From a bacterium (lineage in GTDB: Bacteria > Patescibacteriota > Minisyncoccia > UBA6257 > GWB1-50-10), in assembly GCA_021815205.1 (NCBI GenBank), contig JAKAHD010000002.1:45538-109537 (forward strand): a stretch of DNA of 64,000 bases, in the 5' to 3' direction. Positions within the stretch are counted from its first letter, which is position 1. Every line of letters begins with the position of its first letter. This document shows positions 10,365 to 64,000 of the stretch, in pieces. The notes beneath the pieces were generated by a model. It searched no databases. It was not told where the DNA came from and saw only the letters and a list, made by a program, of their open reading frames with translations. The position numbers were made by a program, and so were the translations under genes.

Positions 10365-11375
10365 ATGTTCATCAGAAAAATAGGAATCGACCTGGGGACC
10401 ACGAACACCATCGTGTTTTTGCCCAATCGGGGGATCGTGATCAACGAGCCGACGGCGGTCGCGCTCCGCAGGCCGGGGAACAATGTGCTTGCGGTCGGTG
10501 CGGAAGCAAAGGAGATGGTGGGACGCACGCCGGACGATATCGTAACGTACCGGCCGCTGAAGGACGGAGTGATCGCGGAGTATTACATCACGCAGGCGAT
10601 GCTCAAGTATTTCATCTCGAAGAGCGTTGGTTCTTTGAACGTGTTTCGCCCCGAGGTGGTGATCTCGGTGCCTGCGGGGATTACCTCGACGGAATACCGC
10701 GCCGTGATGAACGCCGCGAAAGAAGCGGGCGCGAAGGAGGTGTATCTCGTAAAAGAACCGCTCTTAGCCGCGCTCGGCGCGGGCATTCCGATCCACTCCG
10801 CGGAAGGAAATATGATCGTGAATATCGGCGGCGGCACGACGGAGGTTGCCGTGATTTCTTTGGGAGGCATTGTGACGTGGGCGAGCGTGCGCGTCGCGGG
10901 GAACCGTTTTGATCAGTCCATCTCGGATTATGTAAAGAAAAAGTACGGCCTCGCGATAGGGGACGCGACCGCGGAGCACGTAAAAATCTCCATCGGTACC
11001 GCGCTTCCGAACCGGGCAAAGACCGAGATGAAGATTCGCGGAAGAGATCTCGCATCGGGGCTTCCCAAAGACCTCCTCGTAAACTCGAACGAGGTGGCGG
11101 AAGCGGTGAACCCTCATCTTGTGGATATCATGAGCGCCGTCCAGTCCGTTTTCAACGTGACGCCGCCCGAACTTGCGGCGGATATCATGGAGAAGGGGAT
11201 TATTCTCTCGGGCGGCAGTGCTCAACTCCGCGATTTCGAGGAGTTCTTCAAGCGTTCGCTCGGCGTTGCGGCGTATGTCGCGGAAGAGCCCATTCTCTGT
11301 GTCGCAAAAGGCACGGCGATTATCTTGAATCACCTCGACGTGTATAAGCGTACGCTCCTCAATAAAGCCCGCTAA
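10365..11375 (+). CDS. mreB: rod shape-determining protein MreB (actin homolog), paralog 1
   Basis: [15 protein letters not shown]...NEP..VA; ATP-binding motifs; start at second Met. Confidence 0.9.
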   Translation: MFIRKIGIDLGTTNTIVFLPNRGIVINEPTAVALRRPGNNVLAVGAEAKEMVGRTPDDIVTYRPLKDGVIAEYYITQAMLKYFISKSVGSLNVFRPEVVISVPAGITSTEYRAVMNAAKEAGAKEVYLVKEPLLAALGAGIPIHSAEGNMIVNIGGGTTEVAVISLGGIVTWASVRVAGNRFDQSISDYVKKKYGLAIGDATAEHVKISIGTALPNRAKTEMKIRGRDLASGLPKDLLVNSNEVAEAVNPHLVDIMSAVQSVFNVTPPELAADIMEKGIILSGGSAQLRDFEEFFKRSLGVAAYVAEEPILCVAKGTAIILNHLDVYKRTLLNKAR

Positions 11376-15173: not shown

Positions 15174-15197
15174 GGTGCTATGCTATAGCATAGCACC
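15174..15197. repeat. perfect 24-bp palindrome ggtgctatgctatagcatagcacc (P family)
   Basis: Exact self-complementarity; one of 7 copies in the window. Confidence 0.9.
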
Positions 15198-15213: not shown

Positions 15214-15310
15214 CCCTCGCATAACGTAAGAGAAAAAAGGAGAATATAATATGATGAAAACTTCGAAAAATGAAAGAGGTCGCTTTTATAGTGAGTTATG
15301 TGAGGGATGA
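15214..15310 (+). promoter_or_regulatory. leader element V: inverted repeat sequestering RBS plus 19-aa uORF (15251..15310) coupled by ATGA to downstream gene
   Basis: ccctcgcataac(15214-25) pairs with gttatgtgaggg(15295-306); uORF MMKTSKNERGRFYSELCEG, stop TGA 15308-10 overlaps ATG 15307-09; paralogous element before mreC. Confidence 0.6.
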
Positions 15311-15948
15311 ATCAAGAACAAAGAACTTGTCAGAATTGTAAACAAAGGTTCATGATTGAACCCGACGATTTTGTGTTCTACGAGAAGATAAAGGTGCCGC
15401 CTCCGACCTTTTGCCCCGAGTGTAGGAATGTGCGGAGGATGACGTGGCGCAATGAGCGGACGCTCTATAAGCGTGCCTGCGAAAAGACGGGAAAACAGAT
15501 CATCTCCTGCTTTGCTCCGGATTCCGGGATCCATGTATACGATCGCGATATATGGTGGTCAGACGAGTGGAATCCGCTCTCATTTGGTCGAGAATACGAT
15601 TTTTTGAGGCCGTTTTTCTCCCAGTTTCGCGAGCTGCTCGGCGCAGTCCCTATGCCGGCGGTATTCAACAGCCGATGTGTGCGGACTGAGTATGCGAATC
15701 ACGGCGGCGAGCTTAAAGATTCATACCTCGTGTTTGCCTCATGGGGAGGGGAGAATCTGCTCTACAGTAGCAAGATACAAAACGGAAAAGATTCACCCGA
15801 TCTCCTTGTTGTAAGTAATTCCGAACTCTGCTACGAGGTAATGAATTCTTCAAAACACTTCCACGGCGACACGCCCTGTCCGAACGAATTTGAGACAAGC
15901 TATGCCCCCAACCGCCCTGAGATCATCTATTGTGAAAGCTGCTACTAG
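15307..15948 (+). CDS. hypothetical Cys-rich protein with N-terminal zinc-ribbon (CxxC...CxxC)
   Basis: CQNCKQRF...CPECRNV and C-terminal CPNEF...CESCY; flanked by P palindromes. Confidence 0.5.
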   Translation: MNQEQRTCQNCKQRFMIEPDDFVFYEKIKVPPPTFCPECRNVRRMTWRNERTLYKRACEKTGKQIISCFAPDSGIHVYDRDIWWSDEWNPLSFGREYDFLRPFFSQFRELLGAVPMPAVFNSRCVRTEYANHGGELKDSYLVFASWGGENLLYSSKIQNGKDSPDLLVVSNSELCYEVMNSSKHFHGDTPCPNEFETSYAPNRPEIIYCESCY

Positions 15949-15962
15949 GCGGAGGTAGTGTG

Positions 15963-15996
15963 CCATAGGTGCTATGACATGTCATAGCACCTATGG
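15963..15996. repeat. perfect 34-bp palindrome ccataggtgctatgacatgtcatagcacctatgg (P family)
   Basis: Exact self-complementarity, 15 nt after stop of 15307..15948. Confidence 0.9.
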
Positions 15997-16297: not shown

Positions 16298-16720
16298 ATG
16301 AAAAAGAAGAAAATGCATATCTCGCTCATTTCGCATTACCCATCGCGTAAAGAATGGGAGAGCGCTTCGTGGGAGATAATTGTGCGATCTCCAGACATCC
16401 TTAACGCGCTGACTACTCCTCGCGAACGCCACGATTTAGTGATGCGCACCGCGGTAATAGAAAGAATTCATTCCGGGAAAAGCTATCGCGAGATTGGAAA
16501 AGAATTGTGGTGTTCTCCGCAGACCATAAGCAGCATCAAAAAGGCGCTTTATGAGAAAAAGTATCGAAGTTACCGAGAGCGGGGCAAAACAGAGCGGAAG
16601 AAAAGAGTGTATTCCTCGTTCTCCCGCAGAGCCGAACGAGAACCTAAGAAAAGAAAAGCGTACCGCGATTACGGTATGCCTCAATTATCGGGTATTTCAA
16701 GAAGACACCCGCTTAATTAA
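16298..16720 (+). CDS. TrpR-like (YerC/YecD family) HTH protein
   Basis: R..V...I..G.SYREIG......S..TISSIKKAL matches the YerC/YecD TrpR-like HTH pattern. Confidence 0.55.
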   Translation: MKKKKMHISLISHYPSRKEWESASWEIIVRSPDILNALTTPRERHDLVMRTAVIERIHSGKSYREIGKELWCSPQTISSIKKALYEKKYRSYRERGKTERKKRVYSSFSRRAEREPKKRKAYRDYGMPQLSGISRRHPLN

Positions 16721-16739: not shown

Positions 16740-16767
16740 AGGGTGCTATGACATGTCATAGCACCCT
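16740..16767. repeat. perfect 28-bp palindrome agggtgctatgacatgtcatagcaccct (P family)
   Basis: Exact self-complementarity 20 nt after the stop of the TrpR-like gene. Confidence 0.9.
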
Positions 16768-27244: not shown

Positions 27245-27278
27245 ACCAAGTTATTTCGCCATGGCGAAATAACTTGGT
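27245..27278. promoter_or_regulatory. perfect 34-bp palindrome accaagttatttcgccatggcgaaataacttggt (operator-like) at start of PaaX-like gene
   Basis: Exact self-complementarity; 42-bp version at 28042-28083. Confidence 0.7.
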
Positions 27279-27900
27279 AGAAAATGGAACGCGCGCCAAA
27301 ATAAGGCACATGACTCAAGGACAGAAAAGAAAAATGCAATTACGGCGCGGATCCCGTGCGCATCATATTATGAAATGTGTTGCATTGGGAGGCGGTGTGC
27401 TGGTTCTATCGCTTGTTGCTCCTATGGGCGGCGCACTCCTTGTGCGAAATTTGATCCGCGTGTATTTCAGGAGGAGATCTTTTGAGAAAAAACGGTTCCT
27501 GAACGACCTCAAGAGTCTTCGGGAACGCAGTTTGGTGGAGTATCATGAGTCACGGGACGGAACGGTGAGGATTACGTTCACAAAAGCGGGAAAAGAAAAG
27601 ATGCTTGAATATCGGGTGGACGAGATGAAGCTTAAAAGGCCAGAAAAGTGGGATAAAAAATGGCGTCTCGTAATGTTTGATATTCCAAGCGATCACAAAG
27701 AAGCGAGAGATGCATTAAGAAGAAAGTTGAAGAGATTGGAATTTTATCCTATGCAGAAAAGCGTGTATCTTACCCCGTATCCATGCGAAGATGAAATAGA
27801 ATTTTTAGCCGCGCTCTTTGATGTGAGGCGATATATACTCGTGCTTTACGCAAGCGGTTTTGAGAGCGAGGAGAAATTAAAACGGCATTTTGATTTGTGA
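27274..27900 (+). CDS. PaaX-like regulator: N-terminal hydrophobic segment, wHTH, Cas2/VapD-like domain (start uncertain, possibly 27310 or 27370)
   Basis: SLVEYHESRDGTVRITFTKAGKEKM (winged helix) then WRLVMFDIPSDHKEARDALRRKLKRLEFYPMQKSVYL (Cas2-like strand-helix-strand as in PaaX central domain). Confidence 0.5.
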   Translation: MVENGTRAKIRHMTQGQKRKMQLRRGSRAHHIMKCVALGGGVLVLSLVAPMGGALLVRNLIRVYFRRRSFEKKRFLNDLKSLRERSLVEYHESRDGTVRITFTKAGKEKMLEYRVDEMKLKRPEKWDKKWRLVMFDIPSDHKEARDALRRKLKRLEFYPMQKSVYLTPYPCEDEIEFLAALFDVRRYILVLYASGFESEEKLKRHFDL

Positions 27901-28041: not shown

Positions 28042-28083
28042 GCCACACCAAGTTATTTCGCCATGGCGAAATAACTTGGTGTG
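28042..28083. promoter_or_regulatory. perfect 42-bp palindrome ccacaccaagttatttcgccatggcgaaataacttggtgtgg (second operator-like copy)
   Basis: Exact self-complementarity; ~40 nt upstream of PKD-domain gene. Confidence 0.7.
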
Positions 28084-28121
28084 GGCATGGAGGTAGTACA
28101 AATGTGTATAATAAAAGAGTA

Positions 28122-44899: not shown

Positions 44900-44983
44900 G
44901 CTCAGGTGTCGGAACTGGTAGACGATCACGACTCAAAATCGTGTGGCCGTAAGGCCGTGAGGGTTCAAGTCCCTCCCTGAGCA
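44900..44983 (+). tRNA. tRNA-Leu (anticodon CAA)
   Basis: Acceptor gctcagg/cctgagc, anticodon stem cacga/tcgtg with loop cuCAAaa, long variable arm ggccgtaaggcc, T-arm gaggg-ttcaagt-ccctc, discriminator A. Confidence 0.85.
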
Positions 44984-44985
44984 CA

Positions 44986-45555
44986 ATGGGAGTACGAACA
45001 TCATTTCATCGAGCGTCTAGTGCGGATACTTTAGAAAATAAAGAAAATCTTTCTTATGTCATTGGTGTAGCCATTGGTGATGGTAATCTCTCAAATCCAA
45101 ACGGAAGGACAGTGCGCTTAAGGGTAACTTGCGCCACTCAATACCCGAATCTTATCAGGCAAATAAAGAAATCTATAGAGAAAGTATTCCCGCATAATAA
45201 AGTATCCCTCGTGAAAAGAAAGGAGACATATTTGGATGTCAGCTGTTATTCCAATAAATGGGAGAGTATTCTTGGATGGAGAGCGTCTGGCGGTTCGAAA
45301 TACAAACAAAGCGTTTCTGTTCCCCAATGGATAAAAGAAAATAAAAGATATTCCATGAAATGCCTGCAAGGACTGTTAGTGACCGATGGCTCCTTATATC
45401 TTGATAGAGGGTATAGAATGATTAATTTTACGACTGTGATTCCACGGCTTGCGCAAGACGTGAGAGAAATGATTGTTAATTTATGGTTCAGCTCAAGAAT
45501 CTACAGATTAAAAACAAAAGGAAAAGATAAGTATGTTATTAAGAATAGCAACTAA
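44986..45555 (+). CDS. LAGLIDADG homing endonuclease (two-motif, free-standing)
   Basis: LSYVIGVAIGDGNL and LQGLLVTDGSLY motifs; AT-rich ORF starting 3 nt after tRNA-Leu. Confidence 0.8.
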   Translation: MGVRTSFHRASSADTLENKENLSYVIGVAIGDGNLSNPNGRTVRLRVTCATQYPNLIRQIKKSIEKVFPHNKVSLVKRKETYLDVSCYSNKWESILGWRASGGSKYKQSVSVPQWIKENKRYSMKCLQGLLVTDGSLYLDRGYRMINFTTVIPRLAQDVREMIVNLWFSSRIYRLKTKGKDKYVIKNSN

Positions 45556-55881: not shown

Positions 55882-55915
55882 CCGAGGGTGCTATGACATG
55901 TCATAGCACCCTCGG
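55882..55915. repeat. perfect 34-bp palindrome ccgagggtgctatgacatgtcatagcaccctcgg (P family)
   Basis: Exact self-complementarity. Confidence 0.9.
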
Positions 55916-57018: not shown

Positions 57019-57365
57019 TCAGATGCTCAAGGCGATCTGAATTAATCCCTTCGACACCTTTTTTCGGTCTTCCGGGCCAAGTGACTCTCCCGTGGGAATC
57101 ACATCGCTCACCATAAGGATGGTAAGAGCTCGTATTCCATACAGTGCCGCGCGGGTGTAGAGCTCTGCGCTTTCCATTTCAACAGCAAGGACCCCGTATT
57201 TCGTCCAAAGCTTCCACTCGTCCGGATATTCATCGTCGTAGAAGAAATCCGTTGCGAGGATGTTGCCGACTCGGATGGGAATAGTACCCCTTTCTCTGTA
57301 TCCGAGGGAAGAGGAAGAAGGGAGATAATATCGGAAATGGGAGACGTCGAAAAACTTACGGAGCT
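57019..57365 (-). pseudogene. deoD: truncated purine nucleoside phosphorylase DeoD-type (C-terminal ~110 aa only), disrupted by repeat C2
   Basis: RVGNILATDFFYDDEYPDEWKLWTKYGVLAVEMESAELYTRAALYGIRALTILMVSDV matches DeoD/PNP-UDP C-terminus; N-terminal ~130 aa replaced by repeat-derived sequence. Confidence 0.6.
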
Positions 57366-57374
57366 TGTGGAGCC

Positions 57375-57560
57375 CTACGGCTTTACCCCCACACCATGGG
57401 CTCATGATGTGGGGGGTTTACACCCGTGGCACCGCTCCACACGCTTCGTCAGGCGAAACCCTCCGAAGCGATCCTTCTTCGCCAAAGGCTACGAAGGATA
57501 CCCTCCTTTGCATTCATCCATGGGCTTACACCCGTGGTTTTCTGCGAAGGAGGGTAAAAA
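57375..57560. repeat. composite repeat C2 (Y palindrome 57385-57417 plus conserved core shared with C1)
   Basis: acggctttacccccacaccatggg...tttacacccgtggcaccgctccacacgcttcgtcaggcgaaaccctccgaagcg aligns with 16033-16130. Confidence 0.7.
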
Positions 57561-57635: not shown

Positions 57636-57661
57636 AGGTGCTATGCTATAGCATAGCACCT
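57636..57661. repeat. perfect 26-bp palindrome aggtgctatgctatagcatagcacct (P family)
   Basis: Exact self-complementarity. Confidence 0.9.
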
Positions 57662-57708: not shown

Positions 57709-58224
57709 GTGCGGGAGAAGATCGGGAAAGAAATAAGAAGGGGGACAAAGGGTTACCCATGTTACTTTCTCGTTGATAACACAAAGCTCATTCCGCATCT
57801 GAGTTTGTGGCATGTACGGATGAGGGAGAAGGATATCAAAGTGCTTTCTGAGGAATTGAAGAAGCTGCTAAGAAAGCAAAATTCGATTGTCATACGCGCT
57901 CCGAGGTTTGAGGTCTCGAAGCGGAGCAACATAGTCAGTTTCGCGGTTCAGGGCTCTCAATCACTTTCCTCGCTTCAATTGCTCGGGTTGTGGAAAGGGG
58001 AGACGCTCAAAGAAGCAAGGAAGTACGGCCGACCGTTCCGGTTTGATCCGTACTTCACAATGGGGGTAATGAGGCGGCGCGAAGACACACTCACGGTGGA
58101 AAAGAATATGCAAGGAGTGAGATTCCAATTCGCCGCGAACGAGATTTACATTTGCGAGGTAAATCGCTGGTGGCAAGTGACGAGGATGATAAAAAAGATA
58201 ACGTTTGGAAAAAGTTATAAGTAG
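57709..58224 (+). CDS. hypothetical protein (single H-x-S/T-x motif; possible degenerate 2H phosphoesterase-like) flanked by P palindromes
   Basis: 171 aa; PHLSLWHV resembles one HxTx motif of the 2H family, second motif not found. Confidence 0.35.
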   Translation: MREKIGKEIRRGTKGYPCYFLVDNTKLIPHLSLWHVRMREKDIKVLSEELKKLLRKQNSIVIRAPRFEVSKRSNIVSFAVQGSQSLSSLQLLGLWKGETLKEARKYGRPFRFDPYFTMGVMRRREDTLTVEKNMQGVRFQFAANEIYICEVNRWWQVTRMIKKITFGKSYK

Positions 58225-58245: not shown

Positions 58246-58271
58246 GGGTGTTATGACGCGTCATAACACCC
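58246..58271. repeat. perfect 26-bp palindrome gggtgttatgacgcgtcataacaccc (P family variant)
   Basis: Exact self-complementarity. Confidence 0.85.
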
Positions 58272-58490: not shown

Positions 58491-58580
58491 GGAGGGGTCG
58501 CATAGCGGTCTAGTGCGCAGTCCTGGAAAGACTGTATACCCGAAAGGGTATCGAGGGTTCAAATCCCTCCCCCTCCGCCA
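58491..58580 (+). tRNA. tRNA-Ser (anticodon GGA), CCA encoded
   Basis: Acceptor ggagggg/cccctcc, anticodon stem cagtc/gactg loop cuGGAaa, long variable arm tataccc-gaaa-gggtat, T-arm gaggg-ttcaaat-ccctc, discriminator G. Confidence 0.85.
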
Positions 58581-58619
58581 ATACACAAACAGGATATCTT
58601 TATGGTATCCTGTTTGTGT
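58581..58619 (+). terminator. hairpin terminator after tRNA-Ser
   Basis: atacacaaacaggatatc-ttta-tggtatcctgtttgtgtat perfect 17-bp stem. Confidence 0.6.
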
Positions 58620-58741
58620 ATCTTGACGTGCGGATTTGAACGGAACTTTCGCGCCTGCAGGGCAGGATTCAGCGAAAGTCCGTGGCTTCGGAGGAGCAAT
58701 TTCATTTGAGCGAAGCGAATATGTAAATTGCGGAGGAGAAG

Positions 58742-58802
58742 AAATCCCTCCCCCTCCGCCAATACACAAACAGGATATCTTTATGGTATCCTGTTTGTGT
58801 AT
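58742..58802 (+). repeat. 61-bp exact direct repeat of tRNA-Ser 3' end + terminator (copy 1 at 58561-58621); att-site-like
   Basis: aaatccctccccctccgccaatacacaaacaggatatctttatggtatcctgtttgtgtat occurs twice 181 bp apart. Confidence 0.85.
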
Positions 58803-59000
58803 TGGCGGTGTCTTCTGGTTAAAATCCGAACCTACTTTGATGAACATCCGGACGAGGAATGAACCGCCCCGCCGCCGCTCGCTTCGCTCGCTGTTCCGCT
58901 TGAGCGTATTTTTGGCTTGGTTGGCGTCTTTTTCATGTTGTACACAACGCGCATGTTTTGACGTTCTCTCGTTTTGGTATAATGATCACTGTACGGGATC

Positions 59001-62000
59001 ATGAACTATACCAATAGGTATTTTGTACTTTCCCTCCTTGGCGCGGTGGCGTTTCTCTTTATTGTCGCATCTCCCGCACACGCGGCGGTTGTGGGCACAT
59101 CAACCGCAATCACCTCGAACGCCCTGAATACCTTGAGCGCGAATACCCGGGCGGCGGTCTTGAATTTGGATCTTAGCGCGAACGGAACGCCGCAGGAGGC
59201 GTTCAACAGTGTTACCGTTACCGTCGCGACCTCGAGCGTCGCCACATCCACTCCGTTTTCCACATCGAGTTTATCCTTTTTGGGCGTTGCGAAGGACGTG
59301 AACGCGAACGGCATCTTTGACGGAACTGACACAGTGCTCGCGACCTCGAGCGTTGCGGGGATTAACGCCACGACCACGGTGAATATCGCTGCGGCAACCT
59401 CAACGCCCGCGAACGGAAATTTCTTTGTGTTTCTTCAGACGAGCGCCACGTCAACCTTCACTGATAACGGCGCTCCGGAAAACGGCGCGGCGGTAGCGCA
59501 AAAATTTGTGGTGCGCATCAGCACTTCGACCGGCGTCGTCGCCTCGTCAACAAACGCGAGTTTGACGGGCGCGACCTCAACCGCGGTATTTACCGCCGAC
59601 ATCCATTCGCAGGCGCCCGTTCCGGGAGCGATCACTCCCCACTTTGATTCTTCGAACAGCACCTACAGTATTTCGAGCAGTGGGGGAGCTGGGGAGCTTG
59701 GTGTGGTGTATGTGTACGCTACTTCGACCGTGGGCGCGACGCCCATCGCCACGAGTTCCGTGAATCAAAGCGGCGTCTTCAGTGCGTCTCTAGGCGCCAC
59801 CTACCGCCCTTCTATCTGGATGGACGCGACCGATGTCGCGGGAAATGCCACGAGCTCCAAGGCGCAATTCAATCTCTCGGCGTACAAGCCCACCGTTACT
59901 TCGCTTGGCGTTTTTACGGATAGAATCATCATGCAGGTAACGAAACCCTTGCGCGGCGACCAGGCGAGCATCTGTTCCAACTATCTCGTGAACGGCGCGG
60001 CGCCGAACTGTTCGAACTCGCCCGGCGCGCCTTATATCGAATTCAGCGGCAATCAGGTTGTTCTAAAGAACCTCTCCTTGTCCGGCACGGCAAGTTTCAG
60101 TGTGAACGGTCTGATACAAGATACGAACGCCGACCAATTCCCGCTTTCATTTTCAACCTCAAGCGTCGCGGTGCAAACCGTATCGGTGCCGACGGTGAGC
60201 GGCGTAACCCCTTCCTCCGGCCAGGCGGGAAATACGGTGACGATTGCCGGAACAAATTTCGGTACCGCGACCGGAACCGTGTACTTCAGCGGCGGCTTTG
60301 ACCCCACGACCGGCCCCAAACAGCCCGTCGAAGCATCCACGACTGCGTGGAGCAACACCTCGATCACCGCGACCGTGCCAACGGGGGCGCAAGGCGGGCC
60401 GGTACAAGTTATTACGTCCGGCGGAATGATGTCGGACGTGAACCAAAACACCTTCTTTGATATTCTCGGAAATGCGTATTTCAAACTTGCGCTCGCGACT
60501 TCGAGCGCTCCTATTGCGACGTCTACCAACATGCGAATCTTTGTAGGCGATAAAAACGGCGAGCATGTGTATTACGCGGGCGACGCCTCGAGTACCAGCT
60601 TTAACGCAACCACCTATGTCTATACTATTCCGAACATTTCAGGAAACGGTTTTGTCTGGGCCTACGACGCGTCGGGAACAAATCTCCCTGCACCGGGAAC
60701 GCAACTGCAATCCGGGACCTCTTCTTCGACTCCACAAACACTCGTGCTCGCGAGTTCCACGCCCTACAGCGTATCAGGCACAATCACACTCGGCACCTCA
60801 TGCATCGCCGCGTATAAAAATCAAAATGTGGCGGTGATGGCAATCCCGCAGGGCGCGAGTGCGGCAATGGGTCCGGGGGGCGTTCAGCCCGCCTTCTTCA
60901 CGACGGACACCGCGTGTCAAACCTCCTATGCGCTCGCTCTCCCCGGGGCCGGCACCTACGACGTGGAGGCGCACCTTCCTCCGTCAACGTCCGCGGGGGG
61001 TCTTCTCGACCCTGCGGGGCAGACGGCGGTGATTACCGGCGGCACGCCAACTGCAACAGCGAACTTTACCTTTACGACCGCGGCTCATTCGATTTATGGC
61101 CGGGTCGTGGGGGGTGATGGCGCTGCGCTTACTGCGGACAAGTACAACAACTTGTGGGTTTTTGCCTATCAGCCGATCGCGGGCGGCCAAGGAGGCGCGG
61201 CGCGCCCCGATACGAGCGGCTATTTCCGGCTCTATGCCGCAGCCGGTGCGTATAAATTGAGTGTGGGCGGACCTGCAATGCCCTCGGGCATTGAACAAGA
61301 CGTACTCGTTACCACAAGCACTTCGTTTGCCGCGGACGCCTCGACGCCGGTCGTCACGATAAAACTTGCGCCGCCTACAAGCTACATTGAAGGGTACGTG
61401 AAAGACGGTGCGAACAACGCTATCGCAAGTGCCGACGTCTTTTCCTATTGCGCAAATGGCCCGGGCGGCGGGCGCGGCACCACCGATTCGCAGGGGTACT
61501 ACAAGATGTTCGTGCCGCCATGCTCGAACTATCATGTGAGCGGATTCTCGCCGCAGTACGGCCAGTTCACCGAGCAGACGGGGATTGCGATCGCGAACGC
61601 CGCGAGCACCGCAACCGTGAACTTTACGCTTTCAAGTTCGGATTTCGTCACGGTGAGCGGTACGGTAAGCAAAAATAGCACGCCGGTCGCGAGTGCAAAC
61701 GTCTGGATTACACAGGGTACCTTTGGAGGAAGTGTTGCCGGCGGCCAGACGGACGCAAACGGCGCATTTTCACTCAAGGTCCGTACAGGCCTTTCGAATC
61801 TGTATGTGCACGCGGCCGTGAACGGACAGGGAGAGCTTGCAAGCGCGGCGCTCGCGAACGGCGGGACGGTTTCAAGCAACCAGACCGGAATCTCCCTCTC
61901 GTCAAGCGTTGCCACACTCACCATTCAATTGAAACCCGGAAATACATTCAGCCAGGTATTCTTAGGCGCCCACAGTGCATCGGGTGGCGGTTATACAAAT

Positions 62001-64000
62001 ACCGCGACGGCGACCTCTACCGATCACGATACCTATCAAATCAGCGTACCCTATGCTCCGGGCGGCACCCTCTACACTATTGACGGCGGGATACCGAACT
62101 TTGGCCCCATTCCAGCAACCTCCACGACGGTTACGGGCAACGCAACGATTATTATTGACCTGAGCTCCATCAACTATTACACCGTTTCGGGGAGTGTCAC
62201 GGGAGATTTTAATGGCGCGTTCGTCTGGGCGGGAGGCGTAAATGGCGGAGGCGGCACGCAGGTGAGCTCCTCAACCGGCGCCTTTTCAATGACGCTCCGG
62301 CAGGGGACGTATGATATCGGTGTGAACAAACCCGGGTATAGCGGATCGCTCCTTGCAAGCCAAAACATTTCCACAACCACGACTGGGTTGAGCTTATCCC
62401 TTACCCAAAGTACAAGCACCTTAAGCGGTACCGTATCCTATAACGGTACGGCGGTGGATGGCGTGCGGGTGTGGGCGGATAACGCGTCAGGCGGCTGGGC
62501 CGGAGGGCAGACAGACGCGAACGGCGCATTCAGCTTGAGCGTTTCCCCTGGTTCGTGGAGAATTCACGCACTTGCGGACGGATATGAGTTGTTGTCTCCG
62601 CTTCTTGTCACGGCTCCCGCGAGCGGACTTTCCTTGAACTTGAGCGCCGTGAATTTCACCCCGGCACAGCAGTTGCAATCCATAAGTCCGAGCGCCGGCG
62701 GCATAGTGCAAACCTCAAGCACGCTTGTGCAAATTCCACAAGGCGCGTTGGGGAGCGGTTCCACCAATGTGCAGCTTTCGGTTGCGGATACCATGAGCAC
62801 GCCGAGCAAGAAAGGCGCAAAAGTCATCGGTAACGGCAAGAATATCAGCGCTTCCTACGCGTCGGGCGCGAGCCAGGGGCAGGCGATTACGACACTTTCG
62901 GGGAACATCACTCTACAGTTCGTGCTGACGAAGGCGGAACTCATCGCGGACGGCATCACCAACTTGACCGCGGCGCAGAAAATGCAGATAGGGTATGACG
63001 ATACGACCTCGAACTCGTGGACCTACATTCCCACAACCGTGACGGCAAGTTCGACGGACGGCACATGGAACACGCTCGAGTCCATCACGCTTTCCGGCAC
63101 GACAAGCCACCTTTCGACGTATGCGCCGGTTTCGCCGACCTCGGGGAGTGCACCCAACACGCCGACCGGTGTCTCTGCTTCGGCTGGCAACGGGCAGGTA
63201 ACACTCTCCTGGGATGCGGTAAGCGGCGCGACAAAGTATGATGTCTATAAACAGAGCGGATCTGAGTATGTGTATCTCGCGCAGACGACATCCCTCTCCT
63301 CTACCGAGACGGGCCTTACAAACGGCACCACCTATTATTACAAAGTTTCTGCATTAGACGACAGCGATAATGAGTCAGCGGCGAGCGCCGCCGTATCCGC
63401 AACTCCGAGCGCGCCGAGCAGTGGCGGCGGCGGAGGAGGAGGAGCCGCTCCCGCGCCCTACTTCACGGTTCAAAATGGCGCATCTTCCGTCTCGAACCCG
63501 GATGTGATGCTCGAGATGTTTGTGCCTTCCGACATCCATACGATGTCCTTTGCAACCTCCTCAAGCGGTTTATCGGCTTCTTCAAGCGTGCCGTATGCCT
63601 CGCAGTACGCATGGAATCTTTGCGGCATTGCGGGAACACCGTGCGCTCCCGGCGTATATACCGTATATGGAAGGTTCTTTACCACGACGGGCGGCCCCGT
63701 CTATGACGCAACGCGATCCGTAACGCTTGTTGCAAGCGCGACAAGCTCTCCCGCCGCGCTTCCTTCGGTCTCTACGCCTGCATCTGCGGGAACCGTTCCC
63801 GCTTCATTCGCGAGCGCATCTGAATTGCAGGCGGTGTTTACCTACCCCTTAATGCGGGGGGTTCGCGGGAACGCAGTAACCCGTCTCCAGGAACTTTTAT
63901 CAGAAGACCGCACGTTATATCCCGAAGGCAGCATCACCGGTTACTTTGGCCCGCTGACCGAACGCGCGGTACAACGATTTCAAAAGAAATACGGAATTGT
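59001..64000 (+). CDS. giant secreted/cell-surface protein, partial (3' end beyond window; >1666 aa)
   Basis: ATG 59001, signal peptide MNYTNRYFVLSLLGAVAFLFIVASPAHAA; frame 0 open to window end (no closed ORFs listed in this frame); IPT/TIG-like (~60186-60480), CarboxypepD_reg-like repeats (~61080-61560), FN3 (~63150-63410), PG_binding_1-like (~63830-63990); Thr/Ser/Ala/Gly-rich. Confidence 0.8.
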   Translation, partial: MNYTNRYFVLSLLGAVAFLFIVASPAHAAVVGTSTAITSNALNTLSANTRAAVLNLDLSANGTPQEAFNSVTVTVATSSVATSTPFSTSSLSFLGVAKDVNANGIFDGTDTVLATSSVAGINATTTVNIAAATSTPANGNFFVFLQTSATSTFTDNGAPENGAAVAQKFVVRISTSTGVVASSTNASLTGATSTAVFTADIHSQAPVPGAITPHFDSSNSTYSISSSGGAGELGVVYVYATSTVGATPIATSSVNQSGVFSASLGATYRPSIWMDATDVAGNATSSKAQFNLSAYKPTVTSLGVFTDRIIMQVTKPLRGDQASICSNYLVNGAAPNCSNSPGAPYIEFSGNQVVLKNLSLSGTASFSVNGLIQDTNADQFPLSFSTSSVAVQTVSVPTVSGVTPSSGQAGNTVTIAGTNFGTATGTVYFSGGFDPTTGPKQPVEASTTAWSNTSITATVPTGAQGGPVQVITSGGMMSDVNQNTFFDILGNAYFKLALATSSAPIATSTNMRIFVGDKNGEHVYYAGDASSTSFNATTYVYTIPNISGNGFVWAYDASGTNLPAPGTQLQSGTSSSTPQTLVLASSTPYSVSGTITLGTSCIAAYKNQNVAVMAIPQGASAAMGPGGVQPAFFTTDTACQTSYALALPGAGTYDVEAHLPPSTSAGGLLDPAGQTAVITGGTPTATANFTFTTAAHSIYGRVVGGDGAALTADKYNNLWVFAYQPIAGGQGGAARPDTSGYFRLYAAAGAYKLSVGGPAMPSGIEQDVLVTTSTSFAADASTPVVTIKLAPPTSYIEGYVKDGANNAIASADVFSYCANGPGGGRGTTDSQGYYKMFVPPCSNYHVSGFSPQYGQFTEQTGIAIANAASTATVNFTLSSSDFVTVSGTVSKNSTPVASANVWITQGTFGGSVAGGQTDANGAFSLKVRTGLSNLYVHAAVNGQGELASAALANGGTVSSNQTGISLSSSVATLTIQLKPGNTFSQVFLGAHSASGGGYTNTATATSTDHDTYQISVPYAPGGTLYTIDGGIPNFGPIPATSTTVTGNATIIIDLSSINYYTVSGSVTGDFNGAFVWAGGVNGGGGTQVSSSTGAFSMTLRQGTYDIGVNKPGYSGSLLASQNISTTTTGLSLSLTQSTSTLSGTVSYNGTAVDGVRVWADNASGGWAGGQTDANGAFSLSVSPGSWRIHALADGYELLSPLLVTAPASGLSLNLSAVNFTPAQQLQSISPSAGGIVQTSSTLVQIPQGALGSGSTNVQLSVADTMSTPSKKGAKVIGNGKNISASYASGASQGQAITTLSGNITLQFVLTKAELIADGITNLTAAQKMQIGYDDTTSNSWTYIPTTVTASSTDGTWNTLESITLSGTTSHLSTYAPVSPTSGSAPNTPTGVSASAGNGQVTLSWDAVSGATKYDVYKQSGSEYVYLAQTTSLSSTETGLTNGTTYYYKVSALDDSDNESAASAAVSATPSAPSSGGGGGGGAAPAPYFTVQNGASSVSNPDVMLEMFVPSDIHTMSFATSSSGLSASSSVPYASQYAWNLCGIAGTPCAPGVYTVYGRFFTTTGGPVYDATRSVTLVASATSSPAALPSVSTPASAGTVPASFASASELQAVFTYPLMRGVRGNAVTRLQELLSEDRTLYPEGSITGYFGPLTERAVQRFQKKYGI

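Follow-up and report, generated by a model that had tools for sequence, protein, structure and literature searches.

The 64,000-nucleotide stretch analysed here (the window) carries an intact tRNA-Ser(GGA) gene, a direct repeat whose first copy overlaps the 3' end of that gene, a short spacer and a second copy of the repeat, followed by the gene for a very large secreted protein. The features of this locus are as follows:

58491..58580, + strand, tRNA-Ser(GGA), intact, with encoded CCA (ARAGORN; Rfam RF00005, 54.6 bits)
58561..58621, + strand, repeat copy 1, attL-like: tRNA end (20 nt, from the T-loop AAAT) plus a 41-nt hairpin (repeat search)
58622..58741, + strand, spacer B between the copies, 120 bp
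58622..58642, + strand, 21-nt motif that opens spacer B, CTTGACGTGCGGATTTGAACG
58742..58802, + strand, repeat copy 2, attR-like: matches copy 1 at 100% identity and consists of the hairpin and an apparently displaced fragment of the tRNA 3' end (repeat search)
58756..58808, + strand, complete 53-nt palindrome with 22-nt arms and a 9-nt loop (repeat search; fold -42.6 kcal/mol)
58975..58983, + strand, extended -10-like TGGTATAAT (sequence reading; promoter scan match at 58958-58986)
59001..64000, + strand, 1745-aa secreted-protein gene, a neighbour outside the repeat-bounded segment, which ends 238 nt past the window

The original prediction described an exact 61-bp duplication of the tRNA-Ser 3' end, its copies 181 bp apart, and the repeat search bore this out: the segments 58561-58621 and 58742-58802 are 100% identical and lie on the same strand with a spacing of 181 nt. 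The tRNA-Ser(GGA) call was likewise upheld, ARAGORN and Rfam agreeing on its position and strand. In each repeat unit, the 20 nt that close the tRNA, ending with its encoded CCA (AAATCCCTCCCCCTCCGCCA), are joined to a 41-nt perfect hairpin. On the left, identity between the copies begins inside the T loop, and the tRNA part of copy 2 is an end fragment with the discriminator base and CCA. With as many as 3 mismatches allowed, either half of the repeat has two occurrences in the window and no more, and 0 of 100 shuffles gave two matches; a search of 70,375 nt (the window plus 6.4 kb to the contig end) that tolerated up to 5 mismatches detected no third copy. The edges of the repeat are sharp. 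Compared with one another, spacer B and the 120-nt stretches that precede copy 1 and follow copy 2 are no more alike than shuffles, and the structure is therefore not a simple head-to-tail tandem duplication. A foreign origin of the 5' part of the tRNA was also considered and rejected, since anticodon stems differ among all five relatives compared and the window tRNA is no outlier.

The palindrome at copy 2 is complete because the flanking TGGCGG pairs with CCGCCA of the tRNA fragment; that at copy 1 is truncated on its right side, with 16-nt arms and a fold energy of -27.8 kcal/mol. The hairpin had been taken for a terminator. However, an intrinsic terminator calls for a G+C-rich stem and a T-run, whereas the stems here are A/T-rich, copy 1 is followed by CTTGACG and copy 2 by TGGCGGTG, a T-run is absent after both, and the terminator scan made no call; it is not a canonical terminator. 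The window genome is rich in long perfect palindromes, and palindrome and terminator scans recovered those said to flank orphan genes upstream. The deoD pseudogene proposed to lie there was recognized as a 128-aa ORF that matches positions 137-206 of 233 in the PNP_UDP_1 profile.

Spacer B contains no ORF and matches no Rfam family, resembles nothing else in 70 kb (longest match 11 nt) and has no similar sequence in the phage, plasmid or viral collections. Its opening 21-nt motif includes an inverted copy of the T-loop region of the adjacent tRNA (GGATTTGAAC, 58632-58641). On the + strand, B alone folds no better than shuffles (z = -0.98). Neither a decayed second tRNA nor a minus-strand tRNA was found in B by ARAGORN or Rfam; a T-arm-like stretch, read by eye, pairs at three of five stem positions. 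Look-ups of two spurious ORFs crossing the repeat gave no record.

The gene that starts at 59001, predicted to encode a secreted protein of >1660 aa, is indeed the next gene, its product now being 1745 aa long, with a signal-peptide-like N-terminus, CarboxypepD_reg domains and a C-terminal PG_binding_1 domain. Its likely promoter is downstream of copy 2, because the extended -10-like sequence stands there, 18 nt before the ATG. The stop codon is 8 nt from hyp161, and the 6.4 kb of contig past the window comprise hyp161, truB, a methyltransferase gene and uvrD, of which hyp161, truB and uvrD belong to a conserved backbone that is syntenic in the related genome L131. Members of the giant-protein family occur across related Patescibacteria, in unrelated and differing neighbourhoods without tRNA-Ser. 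The suggested codon-usage check cut both ways, as the third-position GC content (GC3, 0.652) is inside the core-gene range of 0.57-0.72 but codon bias relative to core genes is 0.27 versus 0.12-0.17 in other long genes. With its position beyond both repeat copies, its host-like GC3 and its orthologues throughout related Patescibacteria, the giant gene is no bounded cargo.

We found no integrase, excisionase, transposase or phage gene among all ORFs of at least 150 aa in the window and the 6.4 kb beyond it, which together cover 58 kb upstream and 11.6 kb downstream of the locus to the contig end. The interval between the tRNA gene (tDNA) and the fragment, only 120 bp, holds no integrase. Exact-pattern scans of viral and of metagenome contigs for the junction of tRNA end and hairpin each returned 0 matches; those for the junction of B with the repeat and for an internal 25-mer of B returned 0 in the viral scans. 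No attP-bearing element or attP junction was found in viral contigs, a BLAST search with 58581-59000 gave no match to phages and plasmids, and there was no related autonomous element at the same att site in viral contigs, phages, plasmids or fetched loci. Among viral sequences a single one matched the 20-mer, and it is unrelated: an intact tRNA-Ser(GCT) of a phage, on a 270-kb contig. Thus, nothing mobile remains at the locus.

These results bear on the fuller reading of the original prediction, in which the locus is the edge of an intact or recent element that includes the giant gene and has its integrase and far att copy beyond the window. The GC content at 60-64 kb (0.58 vs ~0.52), the codon bias of the giant gene and the differing neighbourhoods of its orthologues favour such an element. 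Nevertheless, the 6.4 kb to the contig end contain neither an integrase nor, at up to 5 mismatches, a further copy of the tRNA end, the giant gene almost abuts the backbone shared with L131 and its GC3 is that of core genes. This reading is already largely refuted, and we give it next to no chance of being right. The prediction was to fall if integrase and third att copy were missing and all relatives had the duplicate; the first holds throughout the available sequence, so that by its own terms the prediction largely falls, though the duplicate is not in all relatives (see below). The stretch after htpX around the tRNA is recombination-prone, with a flank that varies across relatives, but with 120 bp between the copies and no integrase the locus does not form the border of an intact integrated element.

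In all relatives with the relA-groESL-lemA-htpX backbone in common, tRNA-Ser(GGA) lies nearby. The genes that follow this tRNA differ in all five genomes compared:

window: giant surface protein
L131: h177/h195/CYTH
L129: methylase and GmrSD
L135: MliC-domain protein and ABC transporter
L136: NUDIX/LOG/IS3

The genes hyp161, truB and uvrD are conserved while the slot downstream of the tRNA varies in every relative. Because the gene content after htpX around the tRNA differs in every genome, 'recombination-prone' is a fair description of this locus. Three of the syntenic relatives (L131, L129 and L136) have a single copy of the tRNA end, which makes the repeat a patchy trait and fits its gain by insertion; with HtpX proteins 77-87% identical to that of the window, they are too diverged to serve as empty sites. 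The closest relative by HtpX (L134, 94% identical) ends 19 nt after htpX. Homologues of the neighbouring 171-aa protein are at most 53% identical and therefore gave no empty-site comparator, and a scan of the genome collection with the 329-aa neighbour retrieved a single locus, L002, where no tRNA lies within 20 kb.

The fourth relative, L135 (HtpX 78% identical), has a repeat of its own: an exact 19-nt copy of the 3' end of its tRNA-Ser(GGA), 233 nt downstream on the same strand. Compared with that of the window repeat, its start in the T loop is shifted by one base to the 5' side; this repeat leaves a spacer remnant of 214 bp and contains no palindrome. The shared part of the two spacers begins with a similar 21-nt motif, which was found at 0 mismatches only in the window and L135 loci among ~135 fetched, and the hairpin after copy 2 shows weak similarity between the two genomes. 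Homology over the full length of the spacers was significant against shuffles but, under strict scoring, was not the best of 4160 real-sequence control windows; the apparent similarity is robust only over 21 nt.

Fragments of this kind are not confined to relatives. In a survey of 112 unrelated metagenomic tRNA-Ser loci that end in the same 20-mer, co-oriented fragments were present 81-300 nt downstream in seven (about 6%), and one locus had a fragment within 1 kb upstream; no integrase was nearby at the two loci checked (L112 and L085). As in the window, the fragments at L112, L085, L084, L105, L030 and L063 are co-oriented, lie 81-300 nt downstream and begin within either the T loop or the T stem. 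Their identity, however, stops at the CCA end, with a right extension of 0-1 nt (6 nt in one copy at L086), whereas that in the window goes on for 41 nt through the hairpin. L085 further differs in that its units form a diverged tandem array, while the flanks in the window are unrelated.

The best-known structures of this type are islands integrated into tDNA. The Islander rules specify a full tDNA and an end fragment, the 3' fragment lying downstream and co-oriented, with an integrase between them and a length of 2-200 kb (PMC4383910). Like these islands, the window has an intact tRNA followed by a co-oriented fragment that reaches the tRNA end, and on the left its identity begins in the T-loop/T-stem sublocation, where crossovers commonly occur. 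The original argument that a partial tRNA duplication marks integration is thus sustained by the geometry but not by an integrase. The window also differs from the Islander islands (PMC4383910) in having 120 bp between the copies, or 181 bp from copy start to copy start, instead of 2-200 kb, in the 41 nt of identity beyond the tRNA, and in that no circular or attP form was found.

Another parallel is provided by cis-mobilizable elements (CIMEs), which are att-flanked remnants of integrative elements without recombination or transfer genes and have been described in Streptococcus. In the window, too, two att-like direct repeats bracket DNA without integrase or transfer genes and, by analogy, the resident att copy might be a target for a related incoming element. 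Known CIMEs, however, extend over kilobases and can be assigned to a parent ICE family, whereas the remnant in the window is 120 bp long and no parent element was found.

In our view there is roughly an even chance that the repeat is a relic attL/attR-like pair from an old insertion at tRNA-Ser(GGA), its identity later extended over the hairpin. The insertion would have been of the Campbell type, into the T-loop/3' end of the tRNA gene, and most likely carried out by a tyrosine integrase. The tRNA would have been made whole again by a 3' end that came in with the insert (copy 1), the one originally present being moved downstream (copy 2), and the insert would later have been almost wholly lost, leaving 120 bp. 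A second event must be assumed because identity extends 41 nt rather than the 0-1 nt seen in other scars. It is best explained by a later repair or gene-conversion event in which synthesis, primed in the 20-nt homology of the tRNA end, used copy 2 as template and carried its hairpin over to the copy at the tRNA; a halt 6 nt before the palindrome was finished would account for the truncated palindrome of copy 1 next to the complete one of copy 2. The geometry, the repeat that L135 has at its own tRNA-Ser(GGA), the patchy presence of the repeat, the similar spacer motif, the comparable fragments at unrelated loci and the variable flank all support a decayed scar. On the other hand, neither an integrase nor an attP-bearing element was found, and had a kilobase-scale island been eroded by random internal deletions, remnants of 120 bp (214 bp in L135) would be rather small.

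The missing integrase would need no explanation if the downstream cassette had been swapped by homology-facilitated illegitimate recombination with a conspecific donor that carried tRNA, hairpin and TGGCGG through to the giant gene. A homologous join on the right, in hyp161/truB, together with an illegitimate left join 120 bp past the tRNA and hairpin of the recipient, would create the second, partial tRNA end. Such a swap accounts for a slot that varies in every relative next to conserved hyp161, truB and uvrD, for identity that spans a non-coding hairpin (as expected if donor and recipient were of the same species) and for the right edge of the repeat, where the two alleles would diverge. 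We still consider it unlikely: a random join would not be expected to fall in the T loop, the sublocation seen in L135, L112 and other loci, and no donor allele was observed. A purely local rearrangement, in which stalling or cleavage at the palindrome and template switching re-copied 61 nt along with a 120-nt filler, would involve no foreign element at all. The duplicated block does hold a long perfect palindrome in a genome rich in them, and the palindrome of copy 1 is a truncated version of that of copy 2; but the filler has no source in 70 kb, the junctions lack microhomology, and L135 has the same architecture and a similar spacer motif with a palindrome-free repeat, all of which make this origin distinctly doubtful.

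It is improbable, but not negligibly so, that in Patescibacteria tRNA-Ser(GGA) is repeatedly accompanied by one small conserved module made up of spacer, hairpin and tRNA-end fragment, which would be either a miniature element moved by an integrase or a structured RNA. Taken separately, the proposal of a functional RNA or regulatory module (e.g. a processing signal, decoy or insulator) draws on the position of the module, in both the window and L135, between tRNA-Ser and the extended -10 promoter of a secreted-protein gene. The inverted T-loop motif tracks the variant of each genome (GGATTT/AAATCC in the window, GGATTC/GAATCT in L135), and a T-stem-like helix could re-form before the fragment (by eye, GAGG..CCTC and GAGAG..CTCTC, respectively). 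We nonetheless put little faith in this role, as covariation between only two sequences has no power, B shows neither a favourable fold nor an Rfam match, the module is missing in three relatives, including the two closest by HtpX, and the downstream genes of the window and L135 are unrelated. A mis-join might be suspected in a contig from a metagenome-assembled genome (GCA_027423515.1), the more so as no Logan contig of SRR13299515 runs across the repeat, the breaks being at 58520 and 58870. However, an arrangement with B between two repeat units requires reads for both junctions, so that B must adjoin the repeat on either side somewhere in the sample; the ~115 kb contigs from NCBI and ENA in the protein collection carry the flanking genes, and the independent genome L135 has an analogous structure. 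An assembly artefact is thus very improbable.

As a scar of an already known sort, the finding is fairly ordinary. To our knowledge, integrative elements have rarely been documented in Patescibacteria, which are episymbiotic bacteria with reduced genomes, and the locus marks tRNA-Ser(GGA) as a recombination-prone site in such bacteria, with little consequence by itself. A miniature non-autonomous integrative element served by an integrase in trans would keep the flank of the tRNA open for gene-cassette exchange; were the module a structured RNA, its 3' end would mimic a tRNA. If the module recurs widely, it would offer a handle on accessory-gene exchange beside tRNA-Ser(GGA) in Patescibacteria. 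As for the large surface protein encoded beside this tRNA, its gene proved to be no bounded island cargo.

A repeat search recovered the predicted 61-bp exact duplication of the tRNA-Ser 3' end in the following arrangement.

58491–58580, + strand: tRNA-Ser(GGA), called by ARAGORN and Rfam
58561–58621: repeat unit A, copy 1, 61 nt
58622–58741: spacer B, 120 nt
58742–58802: repeat unit A, copy 2, 61 nt, direct and 100% identical to copy 1

Unit A comprises the final 20 nt of the tRNA (T-loop AAAT through the encoded CCA) and 41 nt that make a perfect hairpin. Allowing up to 3 mismatches, the window holds exactly two matches to each half (0 of 100 shuffles gave two), and a scan of the 70,375 nt of the window and its continuation at up to 5 mismatches found the tRNA end at these two places only. 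The edges of A are sharp: the sequence upstream of copy 1, B and the sequence downstream of copy 2 are mutually no more similar than shuffles. Thus, the arrangement is A-B-A, and a head-to-tail tandem duplication is ruled out. The palindrome is complete in copy 2, where TGGCGG on the right side pairs with the CCGCCA within the tRNA fragment (22-nt arms, -42.6 kcal/mol), and shortened in copy 1 (16-nt arms, -27.8 kcal/mol). As neither copy is followed by a T-run or called by a terminator scan, the proposed terminator function of the hairpin is not established.

The gene order around the locus is parA, parB, relA(-), groES, groEL, thyA, folA, lemA, htpX; a 329-aa orphan, a truncated deoD/PNP fragment (-), a 171-aa 2H-phosphoesterase-like ORF; tRNA-Ser, A-B-A, the 1745-aa secreted protein; hyp161, truB, a methyltransferase and a uvrD-like helicase. 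The window matches DAIBZI010000002.1 of GCA_027423515.1, and locus L003 adds a further 6.4 kb up to the contig end. The names given to homologues indicate Patescibacteria. Pfam scans of all substantial ORFs in the window and two unannotated ORFs beyond it, with precomputed Pfam matches for the rest, gave only housekeeping or unknown proteins and no integrase, recombinase, transposase or phage gene in the window or the continuation. A search of viral contigs, phages and plasmids for an attP-bearing element returned nothing, and Rfam yielded no family other than tRNA above threshold.

The predicted deoD pseudogene was found as a decayed-looking 128-aa PNP/DeoD fragment (57019–57405, - strand; profile positions 137–206 of 233 only). 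The 171-aa ORF (57709–58224, + strand) also looks decayed, its homologues having ~200 aa. Both lie between htpX and the tRNA and are missing from that position in the relative L131, where the tRNA follows htpX after only 90 nt.

Loci of relatives were reached through HtpX homologues; the nearest one extending to the tRNA shows 86–87% HtpX identity, with no closer one to serve as an empty site. All syntenic loci share the backbone relA-groEL-(thyA/folA or thyX)-lemA-htpX, followed within a few kb at most by tRNA-Ser(GGA) on the same strand, and each has different genes after the tRNA:

Window: the giant protein
L131: h177, h195(-), a CYTH protein, h142, then truB and uvrD
L129: EcoRI-like methylase, GmrSD/HNH
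L135: MliC-domain secreted protein, ABC transporter, then ATP synthase
L136: NUDIX, LOG-like and PNPOx genes, IS3-type transposase

In every comparison synteny breaks at the tRNA flank, in partial support of the suggested integration hotspot. The tRNA end is single-copy in L131, L129 and L136. In L135 the 3' end of the resident tRNA is independently repeated, with an exact match over 19 nt (CGAATCTCTCCCCCTCCGC, 10562–10580 and 10795–10813). This repeat has its left edge one base further upstream in the T loop than that of the window, and its second copy lies 233 nt downstream on the same strand. This copy is followed by a hairpin beginning ATACAAAAGAG (in the window, ATACACAAACAGG) and a promoter-like TGGTATACT site preceding the secreted-protein gene.

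Homology between the two spacers is suggestive only. The alignment of B with the right part of the L135 spacer beats 500 shuffles and ranks first among 4160 real-sequence windows under lenient scoring only. Its robust portion is the first 21 nt (CTTGACGTGCGGATTTGAACG in the window, CTTG-CGTGAGGATTCGAACG in L135), a motif found at 0 mismatches in these two alone among all fetched loci. Within it, the T-loop variant of the respective genome recurs in inverted orientation, and RNAalifold pairs the motif with the fragment start (GGATTT/AAATCC in the window, GGATTC/GAATCT in L135). Between the hairpins that follow copy 2 there is weak similarity (empirical p = 0.0014 under lenient and 0.06 under strict scoring). 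In L135 (GCA_021791395.1, 10495–10900), the stretch before the fragment resembles two parts of the tRNA there, the variable arm (GGC-GCAA-GCC) and the T stem (GAGAG..CTCTC). Rfam RF04351, which fits the tRNA 3' part on its antisense strand, has a weak second match (16 bits) in the same L135 region.

The giant gene, considered as possible cargo, lies outside the repeat pair with its stop codon 8 nt from hyp161, and hyp161, truB and uvrD have same-order counterparts in L131. Its orthologues occur in many related genomes (46–72% identity) in varied neighbourhoods. The GC3 of the gene (0.652) falls within the core-gene range (0.57–0.72), although its codon bias, measured against core genes, is 0.27 and so somewhat higher than in other long genes (0.12–0.17). 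Membership of the gene in a bounded integrated element is not supported.

A metagenome scan with the tRNA-end 20-mer returned >120 loci; most were intact tRNA-Ser genes from unrelated bacteria. Co-oriented fragments lay 81–300 nt downstream in 7 of the 112 loci with an intact tRNA end, with identity from the T loop or T stem to CCA; the sole upstream fragment within 1 kb was one copy in L086. L112 and L085, the two examined, showed no integrase near the fragments. Scars of this sort, short-range tRNA-end fragments with no integrase, are thus ordinary, and the locus is a further example of an already known kind of relic, although its identity runs 41 nt beyond the tRNA whereas the others end at CCA. 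In unrelated metagenomic bacteria, L085 (103–423), L105 (3537–3832) and L112 (9211–9311) carry two to three downstream tRNA-Ser 3'-end fragments, 80–300 nt apart, with spacings clustering near attP size; the L085 units form a diverged tandem array of ~150 nt.

The locus has the configuration that Islander takes as its tDNA integration signature (PMC4383910), as the att-like reading implied, but it lacks the integrase and the length that this definition also asks for; it is therefore not an island and at most the remnant of one. It probably derives from tRNA-targeted integration and works like it. We favour, at about an even chance, a history of two inferred steps. First, DNA inserted at the T loop, most likely by an integrase, would later have been cut down to ~120 bp; L135 may hold what is left of a related insertion. 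Later repair or gene conversion, primed in the 20-nt homology, would then have transferred the hairpin from copy 2 to the copy at the tRNA, ending 6 nt before the end of the palindrome; this second step would explain both the perfect 61-nt identity and the truncated copy-1 palindrome.

Beside this two-step history, a cassette swap without an integrase, anchored on conserved DNA, is unlikely, and a local template switch stimulated by the palindrome is slightly more doubtful still. A functional RNA module appears improbable. We consider an assembly artefact very improbable. None of the Logan contigs of the source sample (SRR13299515), which elsewhere match the window exactly, spans the repeat; they stop 30 nt inside the tRNA, at 58520, and resume at 58870, which suggests graph branches on either side of the repeat region from strain variants or shared tRNA sequence. 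The intact element of the original prediction is hardly credible, with neither an integrase nor a further att copy up to the contig end.

A perfect 24-nt palindrome family (GGTGYTATG..CATARCACC) has 8 copies in 70 kb and none in ~125 kb of relatives' loci:

15174–15197, 15968–15991, 16742–16765, 55887–55910, 57637–57660 and 58247–58270 in the window
16468–16491 and 17488–17511 of L003 (window-equivalent 65468–65491 and 66488–66511)

These palindromes flank the lineage-specific genes hyp213 (15307–15948), hyp329 and hyp171, the latter two being the predicted palindrome-flanked orphans upstream of the tRNA, and also the methyltransferase between truB and uvrD, two genes that lie side by side in L131. 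Such a layout is reminiscent of cassette boundaries or terminators. A second perfect family (CCAAGTTATTTCGCCATGGCGAAATAACTTGG; 27245–27278 and 28043–28084, arms of 17 and 21 nt) flanks a PaaX-like ORF (27274–27900). The strongest compositional outlier of the window is a LAGLIDADG homing-endonuclease-like ORF (44986–45555; GC 0.377, GC3 0.353, codon bias 0.675 vs 0.12–0.47 in core genes), which begins 2 nt past tRNA-Leu(CAA) (44900–44984).
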